Origin: a phage
DNA length: 59,352 nt
Direction: 5' to 3' (one strand)
Sequence record: PZ564402.1
In this document: one piece after another, positions 4,299-50,932 of the stretch
Layout: every line of letters begins with the position of its first letter
Position numbering within the stretch: position 1 is the stretch's first letter
The notes under the pieces: model-generated
The model's input: the letters and a program-made list of their open reading frames with translations, nothing else
Database searches by the model: none
Told to the model about the DNA's origin: nothing
Translations under genes and position numbers: made by a program

Positions 4299-6881
4299 TT
4301 AAACTTCGTCATCCCACTCGCCCGGTACAACTTTACCGACGATTTTTTCCACCTCCGCGTTATGCTTTTTCAATGTTTTCTGCGCCCATTCGGAGTTAAG
4401 TTTTCCAGACTCGTCGTACGCACCTTTGACACGCTTTCTGACGTACACGCGACCGGACTTCCCGCCGAATTTCAGTACGCCGCCCGGCTTAAATCCGATC
4501 TCCATAAGCATGTTTTTGAGGCGAGACGTTTTCGGCATTTCCACATCTTCGGTTTCAAGGAAGGCGTCTCGCAACGATGGTACGAAGATGATGTCGCGGT
4601 GGACGCCCGGCGTTGTCCCGTCACGCAGCATTGATACTACCGCACCTTCTACCCCATCGTTTGACGCGTCGGCCATGATGGAAAACGCTTCGGTGTCCTG
4701 CGGTGCATGGCCTTTGTGGTCAAAGTCCTCGCTGATCTCCCATTCGAGGAACCATTTCTTCAATGCAGGGACGTGGTTGTCGATCGCCCGGTACACGTTC
4801 TTGAAGAAGCGCGAGCGTTCCGCCTTCGACCCGTATACCCGCTCCATGTCCAGATGATTTTCGGCCTGCGTGGACACTACCAGATAACGACGCTGGTTTT
4901 CATCGAGTGGCAACGCGTTAAAGTGGTTAGTGAACATCATTTTACTACTGGTGTTCACGACAACCTTTGGCTTGCGGCCTTTCGGTTCCACCTGAAAACG
5001 GTCATTGGTGATATACTCTTTCTGCCGCTCGATGGCGCTGTAGCGGTCGCCCTTGTCGTACACCTCTTCCACGATTTTCAGGATGTCGCCTTCCGCCCAA
5101 TCACTGAAACGGCCGTTCATCACGGAGTTTGAAACGTAGCCCACGTTTTTGCGTCCTAACATGGCTGACATGAGCACGCCTAACGTCGATTTACCGGAAC
5201 CGTGCGCGCCGCGAATCAGTAACGAGTAGTTGATGCGCTTCGTCGGGTGCTGGATAATCCACGCCATCCAGTCCATAACGTATCGGCGTTCCTTGTCATT
5301 CGGGAAAAGCACGACAAAGAAGTCCTTGATGATCTCCACGGCCTTTTTATCGTACGGCGAAAGCTCGTCGGCAGGCTCCGGAATGGAATCCGGGTCGAAA
5401 GAGTTGAGCCACGTCTTCCCGGACTCGTCTATAAAGAATTCCGGGCCATTTACCCCCGGCTTCGGCTTCCACAAGGTTTCTTCCATATCACCGTGCATCG
5501 CCGGGTAGTACATGGCGTCACAAACGATAGGGATCGGCCTGACCAGCGATGCAAAAGTGATAGGTTTAATCGTTTCTTCCTCGAATTTGCACATATTTGC
5601 GTACGCGAAGTCGAAAGCGCCCTTAGAAATGTAAGAACCGGACGATTTATCGATCAAACAGTCATTTTCTTCCGAAAAAACGAATTTTTTCAGCCAAATC
5701 GGCATTTCTTTTGAGCCATAATCGAAGCCTAATTGCTCCTTTTTATCGTTCGCAGTCATCCGGTAGTTCTTGATCCGCAGGTACGCTTCGGCCGCAACTT
5801 GGACGATCGTCTTACGGGTCATGCCGAAAATCTGCTCTTTGCGGAAGGATTCGGCCCATGCGTTCCAGTCTTTCTCGTCAGTACACTCGGCAAACGCCTC
5901 GCGGTACTCGATGGCCTTCTCTTCCTGCTCGGCTTTCTCGATTTCACGAACTTCGGTGATGATCGAGCCTAAAGTTACGAGGCGGGATGCGTTGTGCGCG
6001 AAGCCCTTATCCCACTTGTATTCGAAATCACCATCGTCGAAGTTGTGCGCCTGCATGGCCCACTCGCGGGCAATGGATTTCGCTTCGTCCTGATCCCGGC
6101 AGGAGATTTGCAGCGCGGCCAGCACCTTGATGTAGTTCTCGTAATCCTCCGGATTCGGGTACTTCATGACAAGATCGCGAAGGTCTTCGTACGTGCCGTC
6201 CCATTTCCGGATACCCGCCGTTGCCGCCCAATCCTCTTCGTCCGCCGTTCCGATGGCTTCGTACCCGTTCATCGGGCGCTTGACCATCGTCCAGCCCTGC
6301 TCTTTGGCGTAACGGTCAAACTCCGCCGCGATTTCACGCGCGGTATCGAGGCTGATCTCTTCGAGGTCGAAATCGGCTGCGTTGTTCAGCGGATTCTCGT
6401 CGTCGAGCCAGTAATAATCGCGGTTGGTGTCCGGGTGGATACCGTACGCGACGAACTGCTGGCCGTCGGCGAGGATTTCAACCGCATGGCGCTGGCCGAA
6501 GTCGTCTTCCCATACGCCGGACTTCACTTTCGAGAATGGCGATTCCGTCCGGAACAGAAAGAGTTTCTTTGGTGCCCGTCCGATACGACATGGCGCGCGG
6601 CCAACATTCTCCAGCACCCAATCCGCCATATGCGCCACGGCGTCTTCATCGTAAACGTCGATGTCAACCGCCGGGGTGTATTTGGTCAGAATCCCGATGC
6701 CGTTTTTCGTGTAGCGTTCCGCCCAACGCTGGATCTGCTCCTTATCGTTAATTGTTCTTTCCCAATCCTTACCGATGGGGCGTTTACCCGCGCCCTTCTT
6801 ATCGGCGTCCGGGGCGTAGATAGGTACAACGGTGTACCCATTCCCCCAAAGCGTTTCGCCGTACTCTTGCCAGTAATTCAT
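4299..6881 (-). CDS. bifunctional primase-polymerase / SF3 (D5-like) helicase, 860 aa
   Basis: N-terminal prim-pol motifs (VDIDVYDED, YGIHPD), Walker A GAHGSGKST in C-terminal half; acidic C-terminus WDDEV. Confidence 0.8.
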   Translation of the reverse strand: MNYWQEYGETLWGNGYTVVPIYAPDADKKGAGKRPIGKDWERTINDKEQIQRWAERYTKNGIGILTKYTPAVDIDVYDEDAVAHMADWVLENVGRAPCRIGRAPKKLFLFRTESPFSKVKSGVWEDDFGQRHAVEILADGQQFVAYGIHPDTNRDYYWLDDENPLNNAADFDLEEISLDTAREIAAEFDRYAKEQGWTMVKRPMNGYEAIGTADEEDWAATAGIRKWDGTYEDLRDLVMKYPNPEDYENYIKVLAALQISCRDQDEAKSIAREWAMQAHNFDDGDFEYKWDKGFAHNASRLVTLGSIITEVREIEKAEQEEKAIEYREAFAECTDEKDWNAWAESFRKEQIFGMTRKTIVQVAAEAYLRIKNYRMTANDKKEQLGFDYGSKEMPIWLKKFVFSEENDCLIDKSSGSYISKGAFDFAYANMCKFEEETIKPITFASLVRPIPIVCDAMYYPAMHGDMEETLWKPKPGVNGPEFFIDESGKTWLNSFDPDSIPEPADELSPYDKKAVEIIKDFFVVLFPNDKERRYVMDWMAWIIQHPTKRINYSLLIRGAHGSGKSTLGVLMSAMLGRKNVGYVSNSVMNGRFSDWAEGDILKIVEEVYDKGDRYSAIERQKEYITNDRFQVEPKGRKPKVVVNTSSKMMFTNHFNALPLDENQRRYLVVSTQAENHLDMERVYGSKAERSRFFKNVYRAIDNHVPALKKWFLEWEISEDFDHKGHAPQDTEAFSIMADASNDGVEGAVVSMLRDGTTPGVHRDIIFVPSLRDAFLETEDVEMPKTSRLKNMLMEIGFKPGGVLKFGGKSGRVYVRKRVKGAYDESGKLNSEWAQKTLKKHNAEVEKIVGKVVPGEWDDEV

Positions 6882-43683: not shown

Positions 43684-44022
43684 ATGAGCGAAATGGAACG
43701 GGAACGGCCGGGGGATAACTCCGGCGGCATCAAGTTAGACCTGTCTGTCAATCTCCCCACGATTCTGACGATGGCTTCGATGCTGGTGGCGGCGGTACTG
43801 TACGTCAACAACCGCTTCGCCGACCTGTCAAATCAGAACACGCAGACGGACACCCGGCTGACCAACGTCGAGAAACGTCAGGACTCCACTGACGCGGCGT
43901 TCACGGTTCTCCGGGCCGAAACCGTCTCGCAAAACTCCGCCCTTCGTTCAGACCTTCGCGCCGACATGCGCGACCTGAAACAAAGCGTGGATGCCCTATC
44001 TTCCCAAATGATGAGGAAATAA
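43684..44022 (+). CDS. putative holin (single TMD)
   Basis: GAGGAAG RBS; one hydrophobic helix LPTILTMASMLVAAVLYV; immediately upstream of endolysin. Confidence 0.5.
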   Translation: MSEMERERPGDNSGGIKLDLSVNLPTILTMASMLVAAVLYVNNRFADLSNQNTQTDTRLTNVEKRQDSTDAAFTVLRAETVSQNSALRSDLRADMRDLKQSVDALSSQMMRK

Positions 44023-44025
44023 CCG

Positions 44026-44739
44026 ATGGCTAAACAGAAGCCGCGTGGGATTCGCAATAACAACCCCGGCAACATCGAATGGGGGTCGCCGTGGCAAGGG
44101 CTGATCCCGCGTAGCGAGGCGACGGACAGCCGCTTCGCACAGTTCAAAGACCCGGCATCTGGCATCCGCGCCATTGCCGTCACCCTGACCACCTACTACG
44201 ACAAGCGCAAAGCGAACGACGGCAGCAAAATCGACTCGGTGCGCGAAGTGATCGAGCGGTGGGCACCTGCCGTCGAGAACAACGTATCCGCCTACGCTAA
44301 ACAGGTGGCCGCCGTTCTGGCCGTTGACCCGAATAGCGAAACGCTGAACCTCCACGACTACGACACCATGCGCGGTCTGGTGGAAGGCATCATCCGCCAC
44401 GAAAACGGGAACCCGGAAGCGTTCGGCCTGACGCCGTACAGCAACGCGAATACGTGGTACTCGGACGAAGTGATCGAGGAAGGTCTGCGCCGGGCGGGTA
44501 TCGTTAAGGCGGCCAAGCCTGTTAACCGTACCACCGTGGCCGCGACAAGCGTGGCAGGACTCGGCGCGGCGCAACTGGTTGACATGGTACAGCCCGTCAA
44601 GGCTGCGATGGACAGCGCCCACGGCGATATTTCTTCCGGTGATTGGGTACGCATCGCATTCGGCGCGGCCACAATCGCGATTGGCCTGTACATGGGATGG
44701 GTCGCGTACCGGAAGCATCGGGCCGGGGCGGCTGCATGA
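44026..44739 (+). CDS. endolysin with C-terminal transmembrane anchor
   Basis: N-terminal IRNNNPGNIEW motif typical of peptidoglycan hydrolases; C-terminal hydrophobic helix VRIAFGAATIAIGLYMGWVAY; resembles the unusual Chi-like (Enc34-type) endolysin architecture as I recall it. Confidence 0.6.
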   Translation: MAKQKPRGIRNNNPGNIEWGSPWQGLIPRSEATDSRFAQFKDPASGIRAIAVTLTTYYDKRKANDGSKIDSVREVIERWAPAVENNVSAYAKQVAAVLAVDPNSETLNLHDYDTMRGLVEGIIRHENGNPEAFGLTPYSNANTWYSDEVIEEGLRRAGIVKAAKPVNRTTVAATSVAGLGAAQLVDMVQPVKAAMDSAHGDISSGDWVRIAFGAATIAIGLYMGWVAYRKHRAGAAA

Positions 44740-44990
44740 CAGGGCTATTCGCCCGGATCAAGACGGGCGTCCTTGCGGCGCTCGTTTTCGTTGTAGCCCT
44801 CTTCGGCGTCTGGCGGGCAGGACGCGCGAAGGGCAAACAGGATCAGATTAATAACCAGAACTACGACACGTTGCGGGAACAGGCAAACGCGGATAAAAAT
44901 GTGGCCGAGGTGCATAATGAAATCAATAAACTCCCTGCTGGTGGCGCTAACGATCTGCTTCGCCGTAAGTGGATGCGTCGAAAGGATTAA
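44736..44990 (+). CDS. i-spanin (Rz-like), N-terminal TMD
   Basis: ATGA overlap with endolysin stop; TMD GVLAALVFVVALFGVW then charged periplasmic domain. Confidence 0.5.
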   Translation: MTGLFARIKTGVLAALVFVVALFGVWRAGRAKGKQDQINNQNYDTLREQANADKNVAEVHNEINKLPAGGANDLLRRKWMRRKD

Positions 44991-45120
44991 CCCTGCGCCG
45001 TCTTTCTGTTCTGTCGCGCGCGCCATCTACATCGGCGAGGAAGACGTGCTGACAGATGAAACCGCACGGCAGATCGCCACCCACGATGAAATCGGCGAAC
45101 GGCTATGCGGCTGGAAATAG
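44917..45120 (+). CDS. o-spanin (Rz1-like) lipoprotein, overlapping i-spanin in a different frame
   Basis: Lipoprotein signal MKSINSLLVALTICFAVSGC with lipobox-like AVSGC; starts inside the i-spanin gene. Confidence 0.55.
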   Translation: MKSINSLLVALTICFAVSGCVERINPAPSFCSVARAIYIGEEDVLTDETARQIATHDEIGERLCGWK

Positions 45121-45582
45121 TTAAATGGTCGGGTGGGTAATAACCACCGTACGTTCACCCTCGATTGTCTGGTGGTACCGCAGCGAGGACACCAGATGAT
45201 CGAGGCTATTGAAGACCGGGATATTCAGCCTCTTCGCCTCTTCCACCTCCGCGCGGGTACCTGAACTACGCATCGCATCTTCACCAATCAGCAGAACAGC
45301 GTCACAGCGGCGCATCAATTCCATCGTGCATTCCAGCCAGTATTCGTCCGGGGTCTCGCCTTCGGTCTTGTGCTCGAAGTTGGCCGTGTTCAGGTGCGGC
45401 GTGACCGGGAACATCTTATGGACGTAGAGTTGATCGACAACCGACACGGCCGTCTCTTCGGCTTTCAGGATGTTGACCGTCGTCGGAACGGTGCAGCCCG
45501 AACCGATGATGTACGGGCGGTACGGCCCGGCCAGATAGATCATGACGGGCTTGGCCGCCGGGTTACACATATTCACGTTCAT
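45121..45582 (-). CDS. nucleoside 2-deoxyribosyltransferase-superfamily protein (Ndt/Rcl-like)
   Basis: N-terminal IYLAGPY motif characteristic of this fold; last gene of leftward early operon. Confidence 0.45.
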   Translation of the reverse strand: MNVNMCNPAAKPVMIYLAGPYRPYIIGSGCTVPTTVNILKAEETAVSVVDQLYVHKMFPVTPHLNTANFEHKTEGETPDEYWLECTMELMRRCDAVLLIGEDAMRSSGTRAEVEEAKRLNIPVFNSLDHLVSSLRYHQTIEGERTVVITHPTI

Positions 45583-45863
45583 ATTAAGCCTCGGTTATAT
45601 TCGTCCACGTATTTTTCATTTTCAGGAGATCGGTCTACCTGATTAATCTCGCTGAACTCGCAGGAAATAATATCCCCGCTAGGCAGGCGCACCCGCCAAA
45701 AAATATCCTCTTCACGCGGCCCGGTGCGTTCCCATTCGAGCACGGTTCCGTAGTATTTATGCCCGTTGAATCGGTCAGTGAAATGCACGGAGTCGCCTTT
45801 AATCGGCCAGCCCGGTTTTATCTTGGCACGGTATTTCCGTTTTATAGCCTCAACGTCGATCAT
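45579..45863 (-). CDS. hypothetical early protein (94 aa)
   Basis: ORF coupled to neighbours on minus strand. Confidence 0.45.
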   Translation of the reverse strand: MIDVEAIKRKYRAKIKPGWPIKGDSVHFTDRFNGHKYYGTVLEWERTGPREEDIFWRVRLPSGDIISCEFSEINQVDRSPENEKYVDEYNRGLI

Positions 45864-45938
45864 ACTTCATCATCCTCCAAGTCTTCGTCAAAAAGGTCGG
45901 ACTGGCCGCCGGAAAAGCTGACGACAAGCGGCGCTTTG

Positions 45939-46652
45939 TTAGTTGGCATCGGTTGAGTCCTCGCATAATGGTATGAAGTCCTTCGGGCCGTCGCCTGAAC
46001 CGGGGAAGCGCCGGAAGACCATTTCGTCTTCGATGGTCAGTTTATCCTTGCTGTTCCCGCGACGATAGAAGTCGGCCATGCCGCTGCCGTACGTGCGGTC
46101 AATCCCGGCACCATACGGATCTTGCGGGCAAAGTTCCAGCGCCAGCACTTCTCGCCAGTCCGGCCGATCGATACGGCAGACCGTACGATAGTTGTTCGAC
46201 ACCCGGCAGTATCCCGAGGCAATCAGCGTTTCCACCAACCGGGCCTGTTCCTTGCCACGCATCGTTTTCGCGCGCTTGACGTCCTCTTTCCTTGCCCGGG
46301 CGAAATACTCCCGCGAGAATCGGCTACCGACGTTCTCCGCGAAGATGCGCAGGTCTTTGATGACCATGCCCCATTTCCGGCGGCTACCCTCGTCCACGTA
46401 GCGGATGGCTCCGGCGTAGCGAAGCAGCATGGCGTCGGTCAGGCGGGCATTCTTCGGGTCTTTGGCTTTCCACCAGCCGTACACTTCCACCATGCGGGCC
46501 ATCGCCTTGTCGCTATACCACAACTCGGCGTGGCTGGTGGGCGAGTATTCCGGGTAAGACTTTGCGCCGCCGTCAAACGCCCGGTAGCAGTACCAGATCC
46601 CGCCGCTGTACTGGAAGTGCGGTATCTTGTGAAGTTCTTTCATCGTAGCCAT
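45939..46652 (-). CDS. hypothetical early protein (start at internal ATG MATMKEL)
   Basis: GAGGA RBS before ATG 46652; ATGA-type overlap with upstream gene. Confidence 0.5.
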   Translation of the reverse strand: MATMKELHKIPHFQYSGGIWYCYRAFDGGAKSYPEYSPTSHAELWYSDKAMARMVEVYGWWKAKDPKNARLTDAMLLRYAGAIRYVDEGSRRKWGMVIKDLRIFAENVGSRFSREYFARARKEDVKRAKTMRGKEQARLVETLIASGYCRVSNNYRTVCRIDRPDWREVLALELCPQDPYGAGIDRTYGSGMADFYRRGNSKDKLTIEDEMVFRRFPGSGDGPKDFIPLCEDSTDAN

Positions 46653-46653
46653 G

Positions 46654-47106
46654 TCAGTCCTCGGCCAGTTCAGGGTTAATGGTAAACCGCAGTCCGTACT
46701 TAAAGTCGTTTTTGGACAGCAGGCTGATGATTTCATCCGAGTTTTCTATCTTGATGCCCTTCTCGGCGAGCGCTTCCCTCGGCGGGAGCCACGGATCGAT
46801 AGTCAACTGGCGGTATACCGGGGTCATGTGGATCGGCGACCCATCGCGAACACTGTACGGCAGCGGGTATGGTCGGCCAGAACGAGGGTGGATACGTCGC
46901 GGCCCGGGCGAACGGGTAATGCCGTAGAACGATGCCATAACGTCGGTCAGCCCTTTGCCGTACATCGAGCGCACCACCTCTTCGTCGCCTTTCAGCAGGC
47001 GTTTGACGATGTGCCGGACGAACGGGTACAGATCCCACTTCGCGCGTTGGCGGATGACCGAAGCCTGTCGGCGGGCCTCCTGCTGGAATAATGATCCGCG
47101 TTTCAT
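46654..47106 (-). CDS. hypothetical early protein (150 aa)
   Basis: Coupled ORF. Confidence 0.45.
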   Translation of the reverse strand: MKRGSLFQQEARRQASVIRQRAKWDLYPFVRHIVKRLLKGDEEVVRSMYGKGLTDVMASFYGITRSPGPRRIHPRSGRPYPLPYSVRDGSPIHMTPVYRQLTIDPWLPPREALAEKGIKIENSDEIISLLSKNDFKYGLRFTINPELAED

Positions 47107-47450
47107 TTTTTGTACTTATCCTCTTCGTTGAAATTACGGACAGGCACGCCGTCCCAAATGCGTACGATGCCCGGGTGCGCCTCGCGCCACGATCCAAGCA
47201 GGTGATCAGCCCACTCCTTCAAATCTTCGCTGTATGCGGACAGCAGTCGGTCTTCAATGGACTGGCGTTCCGCTGCGGACAGCGGCCCGACCTGATGGAT
47301 GATGTCAAACCAGATCTCGTCGTGGACACCGTTGACGGCCACCAGATAGCCCTTCGCTTCCAGTTCTGCGATGACGGCGTGGGTGCGGTCGGCTTTCATG
47401 CGCATGTAGTTCATGCTGCGGCCCTCCCCCATAAGATTTGCAGGGAGCAC
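47103..47450 (-). CDS. hypothetical early protein (115 aa)
   Basis: Coupled ORF. Confidence 0.45.
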   Translation of the reverse strand: MLPANLMGEGRSMNYMRMKADRTHAVIAELEAKGYLVAVNGVHDEIWFDIIHQVGPLSAAERQSIEDRLLSAYSEDLKEWADHLLGSWREAHPGIVRIWDGVPVRNFNEEDKYKK

Positions 47451-47692
47451 GGCGGCTCGTCCGGATCGGAGTAGATTTCGAACCCGGCGTCCTTAATCCA
47501 GCCGATCAGCATGGCTCGGGACTTATCGGACAGCGGATGGTCGTTGTGTAACAGCGCGACCGTAGTGGTGGTCAGCCCGGCCGATGCGGCCCGGCGGATA
47601 AGACGCTCTACCTCGTCACGTACTTCAATCGCTTCGGCGGTGTGGTGGTCGGTAGCAGCTTTATACATTTCATCGGCAGTGATAGTCAGCAT
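47411..47692 (-). CDS. hypothetical early protein (93 aa)
   Basis: First ORF downstream of promoter 47736-47765. Confidence 0.45.
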   Translation of the reverse strand: MLTITADEMYKAATDHHTAEAIEVRDEVERLIRRAASAGLTTTTVALLHNDHPLSDKSRAMLIGWIKDAGFEIYSDPDEPPCSLQILWGRAAA

Positions 47693-47735
47693 GTTGCCCC
47701 CTAAAGTAAAAATCCCCGTTGTTGCCTTCGGGGAT

Positions 47736-47765
47736 AATATAGGTTATACACGCGACGTATGTCAA
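47736..47765 (-). promoter_or_regulatory. early promoter, conserved family (-35 TTGACA, spacer with TACGTCGCGTGTA, -10 TATATT)
   Basis: One of four near-identical minus-strand modules (47.7, 50.2, 53.5, 56.8 kb), each intergenic. Confidence 0.6.
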
Positions 47766-47772
47766 ACAGTTT

Positions 47773-48285
47773 CTAAGACTTTCTTTTCCGGGCGTGCTCC
47801 AGTCGATCACCGTGGCCCTTCTCGACCATGAAATCGCGGGTCTGTTTGTGCAGGTCGGCGATCGTCTCCTTCGTTTTCCGCCAGCGCGCCACTATCCCTT
47901 CGCGCACTTCCCGGTCGCGGAACAGGACGGCCAAGTCCGTCGCGGTGATTTCGTACCCGGCGCACGCGGCCAGCACGCCTTCCTTGAATTCGTAGAACAG
48001 GTGCTGGATCTCCCGGAATTCAGCCTCGGTTACGACCTCGATGTTGACGGTTTTCCCTTCACCGATGTCGTCCTCGGTAAACAGGCACCCGGCTTCGCCC
48101 ACGGCCCGGCCATCGTCCTTCCGGTAGCGCGAGTTGCCGATGATGATCTGCGTCGGCGTGGTGCGCTCTACGCGGCGTTTCACGGCGAACGTTACTTCCG
48201 GGCTGTACCCGATGCGGATGCTGTTACGCTCCAGCGCCATGTCACCCGTTTCGAGGTGTCCAAATCTCAATTTTTTATCGGCCAT
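47773..48285 (-). CDS. hypothetical early protein (170 aa)
   Basis: ORF. Confidence 0.45.
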   Translation of the reverse strand: MADKKLRFGHLETGDMALERNSIRIGYSPEVTFAVKRRVERTTPTQIIIGNSRYRKDDGRAVGEAGCLFTEDDIGEGKTVNIEVVTEAEFREIQHLFYEFKEGVLAACAGYEITATDLAVLFRDREVREGIVARWRKTKETIADLHKQTRDFMVEKGHGDRLEHARKRKS

Positions 48286-48521
48286 TCTTCATATTCTCCC
48301 TTCGGTAATTCGTCAGTCACGTCGCGCGCGGCCCATTGCAGGAACGCTTCGCGGGTACAACTTGGATAGTGTCGGCCAAAGCCTACGACCGGGCCGTCGT
48401 ACTGGATGTGCGTGGCCCCGATGTACAGGATGGTGCGGTCGTTCACCAGTCCGTTTCGGTTCTGCGGCCGTTTTCCGCGATACGTGCGGCCCGCTTTCAG
48501 TTCTAATTCGCTATCGGCCAT
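48267..48521 (-). CDS. hypothetical early protein (84 aa)
   Basis: ORF. Confidence 0.4.
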   Translation of the reverse strand: MADSELELKAGRTYRGKRPQNRNGLVNDRTILYIGATHIQYDGPVVGFGRHYPSCTREAFLQWAARDVTDELPKGEYEEWPIKN

Positions 48522-48726
48522 CGCTGTCCACCTCGACTTCGAATGTGCGCGGAACGGTCATGGTCAGCACGTCATTCTCGGTGAACGGTGACAGCGGTTC
48601 GTCGCCCGGCTGGAAGCGCAGCGTGACGCTGCCGACGTTGTGATACGTGATATAGCGAAGGCGGAACTGCTCGCCAAAGATGGTCGCGAGTACGCCCGGC
48701 TTAACGTCTCCTGCGGCAATTTTCAT
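48511..48726 (-). CDS. hypothetical early protein (71 aa)
   Basis: ORF. Confidence 0.4.
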   Translation of the reverse strand: MKIAAGDVKPGVLATIFGEQFRLRYITYHNVGSVTLRFQPGDEPLSPFTENDVLTMTVPRTFEVEVDSDGR

Positions 48727-49016
48727 GGTAAAAGTCCTTCTGGCAAATTATCTATGTGGATAACAGTCGGGGTGTAGCCTTCCTTTATGATGCGACCTAC
48801 CCATTCAAACTCCGGCGTTTTTTGCAGATAAATCACACGCTGTTCGTCGCGCAATGACAGCGGACACGGCCACTCGCCCATGTTCCCCCGTATGATGTTC
48901 GCACCATAATGCTCCGCGATTGCGATCTGCCCCTTCGGCTCAATCTCTGGCGCGCCTTCGCCATAAACGATCACGATGTCATACACGGTCATAGTCTCCA
49001 GTCTAACGGCTCCCAT
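48723..49016 (-). CDS. hypothetical early protein (97 aa)
   Basis: ORF. Confidence 0.4.
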   Translation of the reverse strand: MGAVRLETMTVYDIVIVYGEGAPEIEPKGQIAIAEHYGANIIRGNMGEWPCPLSLRDEQRVIYLQKTPEFEWVGRIIKEGYTPTVIHIDNLPEGLLP

Positions 49017-49183
49017 TGGCCGTCTCGTTTGATGTAGCAGCCGCTTAACGGGCTGTATTTGGTGGGTAGTTCGGTCTGGACGCTGACGTCGTTACACCCG
49101 ATCGCCGCGCCCACACGGCCAATGACAAACAGCACACCGCAGATAATCAATACAAACAGCGTTAGCGCAGCGATCTTCTTCAT
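48989..49183 (-). CDS. small secreted protein / putative lipoprotein (64 aa)
   Basis: AAAGGGG RBS; N-terminal signal-like MKKIAALTLFVLIICGVLFVIG with Cys residues. Confidence 0.45.
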   Translation of the reverse strand: MKKIAALTLFVLIICGVLFVIGRVGAAIGCNDVSVQTELPTKYSPLSGCYIKRDGQWEPLDWRL

Positions 49184-49193
49184 GGTGGCCCCT

Positions 49194-50168
49194 TTATTCC
49201 TTCGGTGGATTTGATTGGTGGCGATTTAGCCAGATGACAATTCCGGCAGTATAATTGATCACGCCGAGCAACTCCCTAACCCTTTGGTCATGTGTTGGCA
49301 GGTTGACACCCTCGACGACCTTTTTGCATACCTGATACACCAAGCCGAGCGGGCTATTGATCAGGTCAGAAATGGCGTTCATCGGCTGCTGGCTGAACGG
49401 CAGGTCATTCGCGTGGCGCTCGCGTCCTTTACCATACGCGGCTTGTGTCAGCGCATCATGTAGCACTTTGACTAATTCGGAATAATCGTTGCTGTCTTTG
49501 ACGTTCCGGAATTCGTACTGCCATGACCTGGCGGCCGACGGTGCAACGGCTTCCGGCGCGACGAGGGCTTCATCAAGCGGCCATCCCTGCGCGAAGGCGA
49601 ACATGATGTAATTCATCGCGTCTATGTACTGATTCTCTTCGAGACAGCGGCGGATGGCGTCGGAACATTGCTTTGGCCAGTCCGGCTGCATCCATCCCAA
49701 TTCCAGTCCCGGGTTTTTGCGCTCGAACTGAATCAGACGATCCAGCATGTATCCGAAGACCTGTTCGCAGATTTCCGCCGTGGGTTGGCTCAACGCTGGC
49801 CGCTCCAGATGGAATACCGTGACAGTCGGGTCTGTCTTGCCTTTCGGCAGTTTCAGGTATTTCTGTTCGGTATCGAGCAGCGACTGAATCAGGCCAAGAA
49901 CGTGCTCCTTCATGATCAATGGCGTGGCGTATCCGGCTTGGTCTAACCCTAACTGCGCCAGCACGGCCTTGCGGAAATCCTCGGCGTCGTACTGATCCTT
50001 GCTTTTCGGCGAGGATTGCAGGTCATTGATAATCTTCACTGCGTGGTCGCGCATATCGCCGTCGTCCTCGTAGTCAAAACTGTCCATGTTCAGCGCGTTG
50101 AGGATGGCTTCTTCAAACTTCTCGCTGCTGGTCTTTCTCAGACCGCGTTCTTTCTTCACGTCTACCAT
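49194..50168 (-). CDS. hypothetical early protein (324 aa)
   Basis: First ORF downstream of promoter 50208-50236. Confidence 0.5.
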   Translation of the reverse strand: MVDVKKERGLRKTSSEKFEEAILNALNMDSFDYEDDGDMRDHAVKIINDLQSSPKSKDQYDAEDFRKAVLAQLGLDQAGYATPLIMKEHVLGLIQSLLDTEQKYLKLPKGKTDPTVTVFHLERPALSQPTAEICEQVFGYMLDRLIQFERKNPGLELGWMQPDWPKQCSDAIRRCLEENQYIDAMNYIMFAFAQGWPLDEALVAPEAVAPSAARSWQYEFRNVKDSNDYSELVKVLHDALTQAAYGKGRERHANDLPFSQQPMNAISDLINSPLGLVYQVCKKVVEGVNLPTHDQRVRELLGVINYTAGIVIWLNRHQSNPPKE

Positions 50169-50245: not shown

Positions 50246-50932
50246 TTAAATCTCGTCCCACATCTTGATCCAGCGGTTCCGGATCTTGGCCGATACGTTA
50301 GCCAGTGGTGCGCCGATTTCCAGTAGCGTTTCACGGTCGATATACTCGTTGGGGTGAATGCGGTCAGTCGCCGGGTCGAAGATGTGGATGGCCGCGCCGA
50401 ACCCGGCCGACGTGATTTCGCTGCTGCCTTCCTTCGGCCGGAACCAGACTGGCGGTTCGAACCCGATGCGCCCTTTGATGAAGATGGTGCGCGTGGCGAT
50501 GGTGTCCGGCCACCAGCTTTCCGACGTCGCGGACTTGGTCAGCCAGATGGTGCCTGCGCCTTTGGCCCGCTCCTCGTCGGCCTTGCGCATGATGTGGGTC
50601 ATCCCTGTCAGGTGTTCTTTCCCGGCGCGCTTCTGGCTGTATGGCGGGTTAGCGTAGGCCCAAACGCGGGTGTTCGAGTCGAACCCGTCGCTGGCGTGGA
50701 TCTCGGCCAGACGCTTCGCCCAATCCTGCCGCAGCGCGTTATCTTCGGCCGTAAAGAAACGCTGGCATTTGGCGTTCTGGCCGTCGGTGAACAGGTCAAG
50801 CACGATTGGCCCGTACAGCTTGTTAATCGCTTGGAACAGCCATTCCGGCGTACGCCATTGGTCGCCGATCAACTTCGGTTCGTGCTCGTCCATGCCTTTC
50901 AGCGCGTTCAGCGCATCAACGTACTGGCTCAT
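50246..50932 (-). CDS. dam: DNA N6-adenine methyltransferase (phage Dam type)
   Basis: Catalytic NPPY motif (AYANPPYSQ) and N-terminal WRTPEWLF typical of phage Dam MTases. Confidence 0.7.
   Translation of the reverse strand: MSQYVDALNALKGMDEHEPKLIGDQWRTPEWLFQAINKLYGPIVLDLFTDGQNAKCQRFFTAEDNALRQDWAKRLAEIHASDGFDSNTRVWAYANPPYSQKRAGKEHLTGMTHIMRKADEERAKGAGTIWLTKSATSESWWPDTIATRTIFIKGRIGFEPPVWFRPKEGSSEITSAGFGAAIHIFDPATDRIHPNEYIDRETLLEIGAPLANVSAKIRNRWIKMWDEI

Follow-up and report, generated by a model that had tools for sequence, protein, structure and literature searches.

A nucleoside 2-deoxyribosyltransferase-fold protein with nucleotide-type residues at the end of the leftward gene block of a Chi-like phage

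The locus and its surroundings

The window analysed here is the whole stretch of phage DNA in record PZ564402.1, 59,352 bp in length, and is essentially a complete Chi-like siphophage genome. A megablast search with its positions 44000-47000 matched 109 phage records, the best of which was Salmonella phage SPN19 (96.6% identity, 100% query cover), classified as Casjensviridae, Chivirus. Our subject is a gene for which the initial annotation had proposed a nucleoside 2-deoxyribosyltransferase (NDT)-like product on the strength of an IYLAGPY signature. An open reading frame with exactly the limits given there was found, on the minus strand, which had not been named before, and the signature occupies residues 15-21 of its translation. 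The features of the locus are as follows.

45121..45582, minus strand: NDT-like coding sequence of 153 aa with an ATG start, DUF7768/DUF4406 branch of the NDT superfamily
45579..45592, minus strand: translation start region read from the sequence, with GAGG at 45592-45589, a 6-nt spacer and ATG at 45582-45580
45579-45863, minus strand: 94-aa ORF, PHROG 18367 of unknown function, no Pfam or PADLOC match
45860-45949, minus strand: relic of a PP-loop gene, 29 codons, MPTNKAPLVVSFSGGQSDLFDEDLEDDEV and stop, left by an in-frame internal deletion; the same relic is present in SPN19
47736..47765, minus strand: candidate sigma-70 promoter, TTGACA, 18 nt, TATATT, from a pattern scan (11/12 consensus matches)

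The NDT-like gene is real and conserved in Chi-like Salmonella phages. Pairwise dN/dS values among Chivirus alleles from six Chi-like phages lie between 0.14 and 0.46, which indicates purifying selection, and a tblastn search recovered the gene in 216 phage records. Beyond Chivirus, the hosts of its Casjensviridae carriers are Klebsiella, Proteus, Providencia, Hafnia and Pectobacterium, and 9NA-like phages carry it as well. The homologues of Yonseivirus Soft and Enchivirus Enc34 lie at the end of the leftward operon or directly beside it and face the lysis genes, so that the position is syntenic in three Casjensviridae genera despite a protein identity of only 41-47%. The protein of Klebsiella phage Soft is annotated as 242 aa (record L089, 2495-3223) and exceeds that of Chivirus by about 90 residues, and since the homologous part is N-terminal, Soft carries an uncharacterised C-terminal extension. 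A separate observation concerns Salmonella phage 118970_sal1 (record L092, about 400-460), in which one extra nucleotide within a run of A, GGTCAAACATC versus GGTCAACATC, frameshifts the gene and leads to an annotated product truncated to 108 aa; a sequencing error in the homopolymer is likely, or else a natural pseudogene confined to this record.

The stop codon of the NDT-like gene (45121-45123, minus strand) abuts, with zero spacer, the stop codon of a convergent Rz1-like lysis ORF (45118-45120, plus strand), which makes it the 3′-terminal gene of the leftward block. The gene had been placed at the end of an early operon, and its terminal position is borne out by the abutting stops, while its early character is deduced from gene content and a promoter pattern match. 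At the convergent junction, a pattern scan detected no terminator-like site and RNA folding is unremarkable (z = -0.18); with the stops abutting and a terminator-like hairpin absent, early and late transcripts must either run into each other or terminate within genes. The candidate sigma-70 promoter lies in a gap of 80 bp upstream of the six final leftward genes, the NDT-like gene included, and its sequence is identical in SPN19, Chi and one more Chivirus. This pattern match and the RdgC-like and Dam gene content would fit early transcription of the leftward block by the host RNA polymerase; a literature search on Chivirus transcription yielded nothing specific.

Among the leftward ORFs scanned, which encode an RdgC-like protein and a Dam-type methylase, Pfam recognised no nucleotide- or DNA-metabolism enzyme besides the methylase, and no pathway can therefore be reconstructed from the window. 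None of the eight leftward ORFs nearest to the NDT-like gene (45579-50168) has a Pfam domain, the first Pfam match upstream being the methylase itself at 50246-50932. Five of the six nearest leftward ORFs match only PHROGs of unknown function and the sixth is named ‘ThyX’ by its PHROG. A primase of the Prim-Pol/D5 type is the product of another leftward ORF, set apart at 4299-6881. Two public labels in this region merit correction. The gene at 50246-50932 (minus strand) is annotated ‘phosphoadenosine phosphosulfate reductase / NinC’ in many Chi-like records; its product is a Dam-type N6-adenine DNA methyltransferase (PF05869, E 6.7e-30; PHROG 111), and the PAPS-reductase label looks like a propagated annotation error. 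The 170-aa protein at 47773-48285 (minus strand) is annotated ‘thymidylate synthase complementing protein’ (RefSeq, PHROG 9072), a functional name left unsupported by the lack of any match to Pfam ThyX (PF02511) at E<=0.01.

Immediately upstream of the NDT-like gene, the arrangement varies among relatives. Its ATG overlaps the TGA stop (45581-45579) of the 94-aa ORF, an ATGA overlap that suggests translational coupling of the two. This ORF lies exactly between the stop of the PP-loop relic and the NDT-like start, with an ATGA overlap on each side, and is unrelated to the PP-loop gene. In Chi, ER24, BP12C and another Chivirus, the place directly upstream is instead taken by a 304-aa PP-loop ‘PAPS reductase-like’ gene (PF01507) with the same ATGA overlap; ER24, which is without the 94-aa ORF, thus shows the same kind of overlap with a different upstream gene. 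In the relic of the window, the N-terminal SFSGGQS motif runs straight on into the final 12 codons of the PP-loop gene. Among Chiviruses, the interval from a 150-aa gene to the NDT-like gene is a hot spot of mosaicism. Both arrangements keep the NDT-like gene complete and conserved, and it is therefore not obligately linked to the PP-loop gene. An obligate functional link to the upstream PAPS-reductase-like gene was accordingly rejected, the PP-loop gene being deleted in the window.

Family membership and fold

The best family assignment of the protein is Pfam DUF7768 (PF24963), matched at 34.2 bits against a gathering cutoff of 26 (E 3.3e-8) over residues 20-124 and profile positions 8-96 of 98; the close relatives found in the homologue search all carry the same precomputed DUF7768 match. 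PHROG 355, ‘nucleoside 2-deoxyribosyltransferase’, also matches (E 1.4e-31). The classical NDT model PF05014 (Nuc_deoxyrib_tr) scores 19.9 bits (E 8.3e-4), below its cutoff of 28.8, and DUF4406 (PF14359) scores 19.0 bits, below its cutoff of 22. The latter matches 48 of 50 scanned relatives at E<=1e-3 and is a sister family, not the best assignment for the window protein. All sub-threshold Pfam matches were to related NDT-like families (Nuc_deoxyrib_tr, DUF4406 and DUF1937), an NCBIfam scan returned nothing relevant, and a PDB search with the single sequence gave chance matches only. The protein therefore belongs to an uncharacterised DUF7768/DUF4406/DUF1937 branch outside the classical NDT family. 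Membership itself says nothing on activity, as none of the three domains has an assigned function; in literature searches DUF7768 and DUF1937 did not turn up at all, DUF4406 was mentioned only in passing, and no biochemically characterised member of the branch came to light.

The branch is large. A word-indexed homologue search returned Chi-like proteins at 86-97% identity, together with some 20 relatives from metagenomes at 36-46%, and a profile built from relatives finds 18,680 representatives of clusters at 50% identity at E<=1e-3, with 6,626 at 1e-10 and 672 at 1e-30. The family profile also matches PDB entry 1t1j (6.9e-5), the structure of P. aeruginosa PA1492 of DUF1937 (PF09152). An AlphaFold2 model built on the alignment of relatives has a mean pLDDT of 80.7 and a pTM of 0.77, and its top Foldseek matches in the PDB are NDTs, DNPH1 and MilB; among viral models (BFVD) it retrieves many phage proteins named NDT, DUF7768 or DUF4406. 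A TIR fold with a catalytic Glu in the TIR position was not the best structural match, the similarity to NDTs being stronger. The Ndt/Rcl fold of the initial annotation is thus upheld by DUF7768, PHROG 355, the 1t1j profile match and the Foldseek ranking, and the profile searches that might have pointed to a different fold brought up only NDT-like families.

Compared with the DUF7768/DUF4406/DUF1937 families, Chivirus proteins carry lineage-specific loop insertions at residues 24-28, 53-55 and 70-73 and a 20-residue C-terminal extension, which is modelled with low confidence. The first insertion forms the loop directly after the AGPYR motif, where the AlphaFold2 model predicts a small hairpin; as the insertions lie in the substrate loop, specificity may not be that of other family members.

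The gene already bears the name ‘nucleoside 2-deoxyribosyltransferase’ in RefSeq and in several GenBank records, so its NDT-fold annotation is in the public record. This name is right on the fold and probably wrong on the substrate class: with PF05014 below its cutoff and two NDT-defining Asp residues missing, ‘nucleotide N-glycosidase-like’ is the better reading.

Residues of the predicted active site

The conserved residues of the protein fall into four motifs, listed below in chain order.

45517..45540, minus strand: beta-1 motif I15-Y-L-A-G-P-Y-R22, in which Y16 is the predicted catalytic-triad Tyr and R22 is Tyr+6
45385..45399, minus strand: P62-H-L-N-T66 motif after strand beta-2, in which H63 aligns with DNPH1 H56
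45301..45327, minus strand: helix T86-M-E-L-M-R-R-C-D94, with T86 at the general-acid Asp/Asn position
45247..45267, minus strand: S106-S-G-T-R-A-E112, in which E112 is the predicted covalent nucleophile and S106 is Glu-6

Conservation was read from an alignment of 173 sequences comprising the window protein, the homologue-search hits except for six near-identical Chi-like proteins and one truncated protein, and the top 150 profile representatives. G19 and P62 are kept in all 173, N37, A41, S106, G108 and E112 in 172, Y16 in 171, A18 in 170, D94 in 169, H63 in 167, R92 in 164, C93 in 161, R22 in 153, E88 in 152 and N65 in 141. E88 and R92-C93-D94 are family-specific conserved residues. Position 86 is Thr in 126 of the 173 and Asp in 40. 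These Asp-type relatives are indistinguishable from the Thr type at all other conserved positions, and a carboxylate at position 86 therefore seems dispensable or replaceable in the DUF7768/DUF4406/DUF1937 branch.

Correspondence with other proteins of the superfamily was read from low-identity profile alignments: three independent ones, the HMMER profile alignments to 1t1j and to 2a0k and an hhalign alignment to DNPH1, gave one consistent register, although the last is weak alone against a single DNPH1 sequence (E 0.05, not significant). The human DNPH1 and L. leichmannii NDT (LlNDT) query sequences agree with their PDB chains except at engineered mutations and construct termini. In the hhalign register, Chi Y16 corresponds to DNPH1 Y24, R22 to R30, T86 to D80, D94 to D88, S106 to S98, E112 to E104 and, with the same weak E value of 0.05 against a single sequence, H63 to H56. 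The 2a0k alignment places E112 on the nucleophile Glu of TbPDT, S106 on the Asp at Glu-6 and T86 on the triad Asn. An hhalign comparison of the family with the single LlNDT sequence gave a spurious 12-column match and was discarded.

The functions of these positions are known in the superfamily. DNPH1 E104 and LlNDT E98 are the covalent nucleophile, and D80 and D72, respectively, the general acid (PMC10603095, PMC10483697, PMC7308715). The superfamily Tyr orients the nucleophile, and Tyr there, as against Phe, selects for 2′-deoxy sugars (PMC10603095, PMC7308715). The 5′-phosphate is bound by DNPH1 S98 and MilB S97, while MilB R23, the counterpart of DNPH1 R30, binds phosphate and substrate (PMC10603095, PMC10483697, PMC7308715); DNPH1 H56 stabilises the leaving base (PMC10603095). 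The DNPH1 catalytic triad is defined as Tyr, Asp and Glu (PMC10603095, PMC10483697). The Asp or Asn that holds the 5′-OH in transferases is missing from NDT-type hydrolases and from the phage enzyme DmtZ (PMC12884076).

Set against this background, the Tyr and the Glu nucleophile of classical NDTs (LlNDT Y7 and E98) are present as Y16 and E112, whereas the general-acid Asp/Asn eight residues before the beta-3 Asp (LlNDT D72, DNPH1 D80, the Asn of TbPDT) is replaced by Thr86. The DNPH1 triad of Y24, D80 and E104 is thus incomplete, with its Tyr and Glu kept and Thr86 in the Asp position, where 1t1j has Asp. Likewise, the Glu-6 Asp of classical NDTs (LlNDT D92), which TbPDT has in the aligned column, is Ser106 in the Chi protein, and the Ser at Glu-6 and Arg at Tyr+6 of DNPH1 and MilB are found in aligned columns as S106 and R22. 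The same two positions are altered in the LlNDT variant 4hx9, which differs from wild type by F13R, E91Q, D92G, V93T and N123S, F13R falling at Tyr+6 and D92G at Glu-6. We take 4hx9 to be an engineered phosphodeoxyribosyltransferase, that is, a phosphate-accepting LlNDT. The NDT-like protein is thus, as predicted from these alignments, a combination of the nucleophile pair, two determinants of 5′-phosphate and 2′-deoxy recognition and a Thr in the place of the general acid. E88 is a candidate replacement for the missing acid. With Thr86 at its position, the chemistry might be weak or of another kind, or the leaving group might not have to be protonated.

The closest match in probable mode of action is therefore offered by DNPH1/Rcl and MilB, which are (deoxy)nucleoside 5′-monophosphate N-glycosidases and have in common with the Chi protein the fold, the Tyr and the nucleophilic Glu, as well as a Ser at Glu-6 and an Arg at Tyr+6. 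In the weak hhalign alignment, the His after strand beta-2 falls on DNPH1 H56, the base-contacting residue for which MilB has E62. Differences remain, however: there is no detectable pairwise sequence similarity to DNPH1 or MilB, Asp80 of DNPH1 is Thr86 in the Chi protein, a counterpart of the helix carrying Ser128′ of the second subunit was not identified, and eukaryotic DNPH1 is a dedicated 5hmdUMP sanitiser. Classical NDTs (PF05014; LlNDT 1f8x, TbPDT 2a0k, BpNDT 6evs) also have the NDT alpha/beta fold in common with the Chi protein, but differ by the changes from 5′-OH-binding Asp to Ser and from general-acid Asp/Asn to Thr, and by the Pfam score below cutoff.

Genomic company and probable activity

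The genes around relatives elsewhere are those of replication modules. All four long metagenomic contigs with relatives are phage genomes, and in each the relative is part of the replication module, its neighbour being a gene for a DNA methylase, primase, RusA, PolA or helicase. When the four ORFs on each side were clustered by BLAST at 75 IMG/VR viral loci, no neighbour family was present at more than six, and those six are near-duplicates. In a Pfam scan of 135 immediate neighbours, no family occurred in more than three; among them were replication proteins (PolA and helicase three times each, a primase and an SSB), DNA methylases (four) and, once each, a dNMP kinase, a dATP/dGTP diphosphohydrolase and ThyX. 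No extra Pfam domain recurs in 50 longer relatives, and fusion to a dATP/dGTP diphosphohydrolase domain was seen only in a few distant structural matches from BFVD. The lack of a recurrent neighbour, fusion or PADLOC match argues for a protein that works by itself, in the company of genes for replication and nucleotide metabolism.

On balance, we favour a stand-alone NDT-superfamily enzyme that acts on dNMPs through a deoxyribosyl-phosphate linked to Glu112, as a hydrolase or a transferase, and edits the dNMP pool. The conserved residues point to a nucleotide and not a nucleoside as the substrate, the 5′-phosphate being something we infer from them, and the protein probably removes the base from deoxynucleotides rather than swapping bases on nucleosides. 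In such a mechanism Glu112, oriented by Tyr16, would attack C1′ of a 2′-deoxyribonucleotide whose 5′-phosphate is held by Ser106 and Arg22. The attack would expel the base, with His63 stabilising it as it leaves and Thr86 standing in for the usual general-acid Asp, and would form a covalent 2-deoxyribosyl-5-phosphate-enzyme ester on Glu112. This ester could be resolved by water, giving an N-glycosidase, or by another base, giving phosphodeoxyribosyl transfer. Besides the residues, the favoured reading draws on the precedent of DmtZ, a phage NDT-like enzyme with a dNMP as its substrate, on the place of relatives in replication and nucleotide-metabolism modules and on the synteny across three Casjensviridae genera. 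Expressed from the last gene of the leftward replication/early block, with its translation presumably coupled to that of the upstream neighbour, the enzyme would likely serve dNMP-pool editing in phage DNA replication, in which one particular (deoxy)nucleotide may be removed or converted.

The public name implies instead a classical nucleoside 2′-deoxyribosyltransferase (EC 2.4.2.6), which would swap bases between free deoxynucleosides for salvage. The fold and the Tyr and Glu pair are as expected of such an enzyme, but we consider it unlikely given the PF05014 score of 19.9 against a cutoff of 28.8 and the residues themselves: an invariant Ser at Glu-6 and not the Asp that holds the 5′-OH in LlNDT (D92) and TbPDT, an Arg at Tyr+6 where LlNDT has Phe, and a Thr for the general-acid Asp/Asn. 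According to a preprint, moreover, several phage proteins annotated as NDTs showed no transglycosylation. The initial annotation had also allowed for a contribution to DNA modification, besides the remodelling of nucleotide pools and the degradation of nucleotide-based immune signals. A precedent exists in DmtZ of Z-genome phages, an NDT-like phage enzyme that hydrolyses dAMP and transfers dRP (PMC12884076), and by analogy the Chi protein might transfer dRP from a canonical dNMP to a non-canonical base, so that a modified dNTP enters phage DNA. Compared by description, the two are alike in being phage-encoded, in missing the 5′-OH-binding Asp/Asn and, as regards relatives of the Chi gene, in lying among nucleotide-metabolism genes. 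The PP-loop ‘PAPS reductase-like’ gene (PF01507) directly upstream in Chi, ER24, BP12C and others, with its overlap of the NDT-like start, and the frequency of DNA methylases next to relatives, would also suit this route. DmtZ, however, has retained an Asn in its triad and occurs in PurZ0 clusters, where it is linked with DutZ or fused to it, whereas neither partner accompanies the Chi gene in the leftward ORFs and viral loci scanned. Only a 29-codon relic of the PP-loop gene is left in the window and in SPN19 while the NDT-like gene stays intact under purifying selection, Pfam detected no base-biosynthesis genes in the leftward ORFs scanned, and no partner gene is conserved across the 75 viral loci; we therefore hold this route to be very unlikely. 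To our knowledge, hypermodified bases have not been reported in Chi DNA.

It is equally hard to credit a role in counter-defence, in which the protein would destroy or sequester a nucleotide-derived immune signal or an NAD-related molecule by way of an NDT/TIR-like fold. The similarity to TIR domains that might commend it is weaker than that to NDTs, and the invariant Tyr16 disfavours ribose substrates in the NDT superfamily. No PADLOC model matches the protein, and the gene sits in replication modules, not with recognisable anti-defence genes, and has no conserved neighbours. The 75 viral loci, the 135 neighbours and PADLOC thus lend no specific support to the degradation of immune signals, and a literature search linking phage NDT-like proteins to anti-defence found nothing specific. 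A more speculative extension of the favoured dNMP-editing activity, improbable on present evidence, is that DUF7768/DUF4406 proteins are the phage counterpart of the DNPH1 sanitiser, a dNMP N-glycosidase of the Thr type by which one unwanted deoxynucleotide is destroyed during replication. If so, candidate targets would be dUMP or dIMP arising from host deaminase defences, or methylated dNMPs from degraded host DNA, and the phage DNA would be protected from misincorporation or from nucleotide-targeting immunity.

For the window, the outcome is a tidier annotation, in which the gene is real and its public name probably too specific. To the existing fold assignment we add an uncharacterised branch, residues of the nucleotide type, a missing canonical acid residue and the absence of a conserved partner gene. 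The family, with about 18,700 representatives at 50% identity, is found throughout phage replication modules, and in its active site phosphate-binding features like those of DNPH1 go together with a missing canonical acid. With a phage as easily grown as Chi on Salmonella, one enzymological study would give thousands of phage genes a function, and characterising the family could reveal a new way in which phages edit the nucleotide pool.
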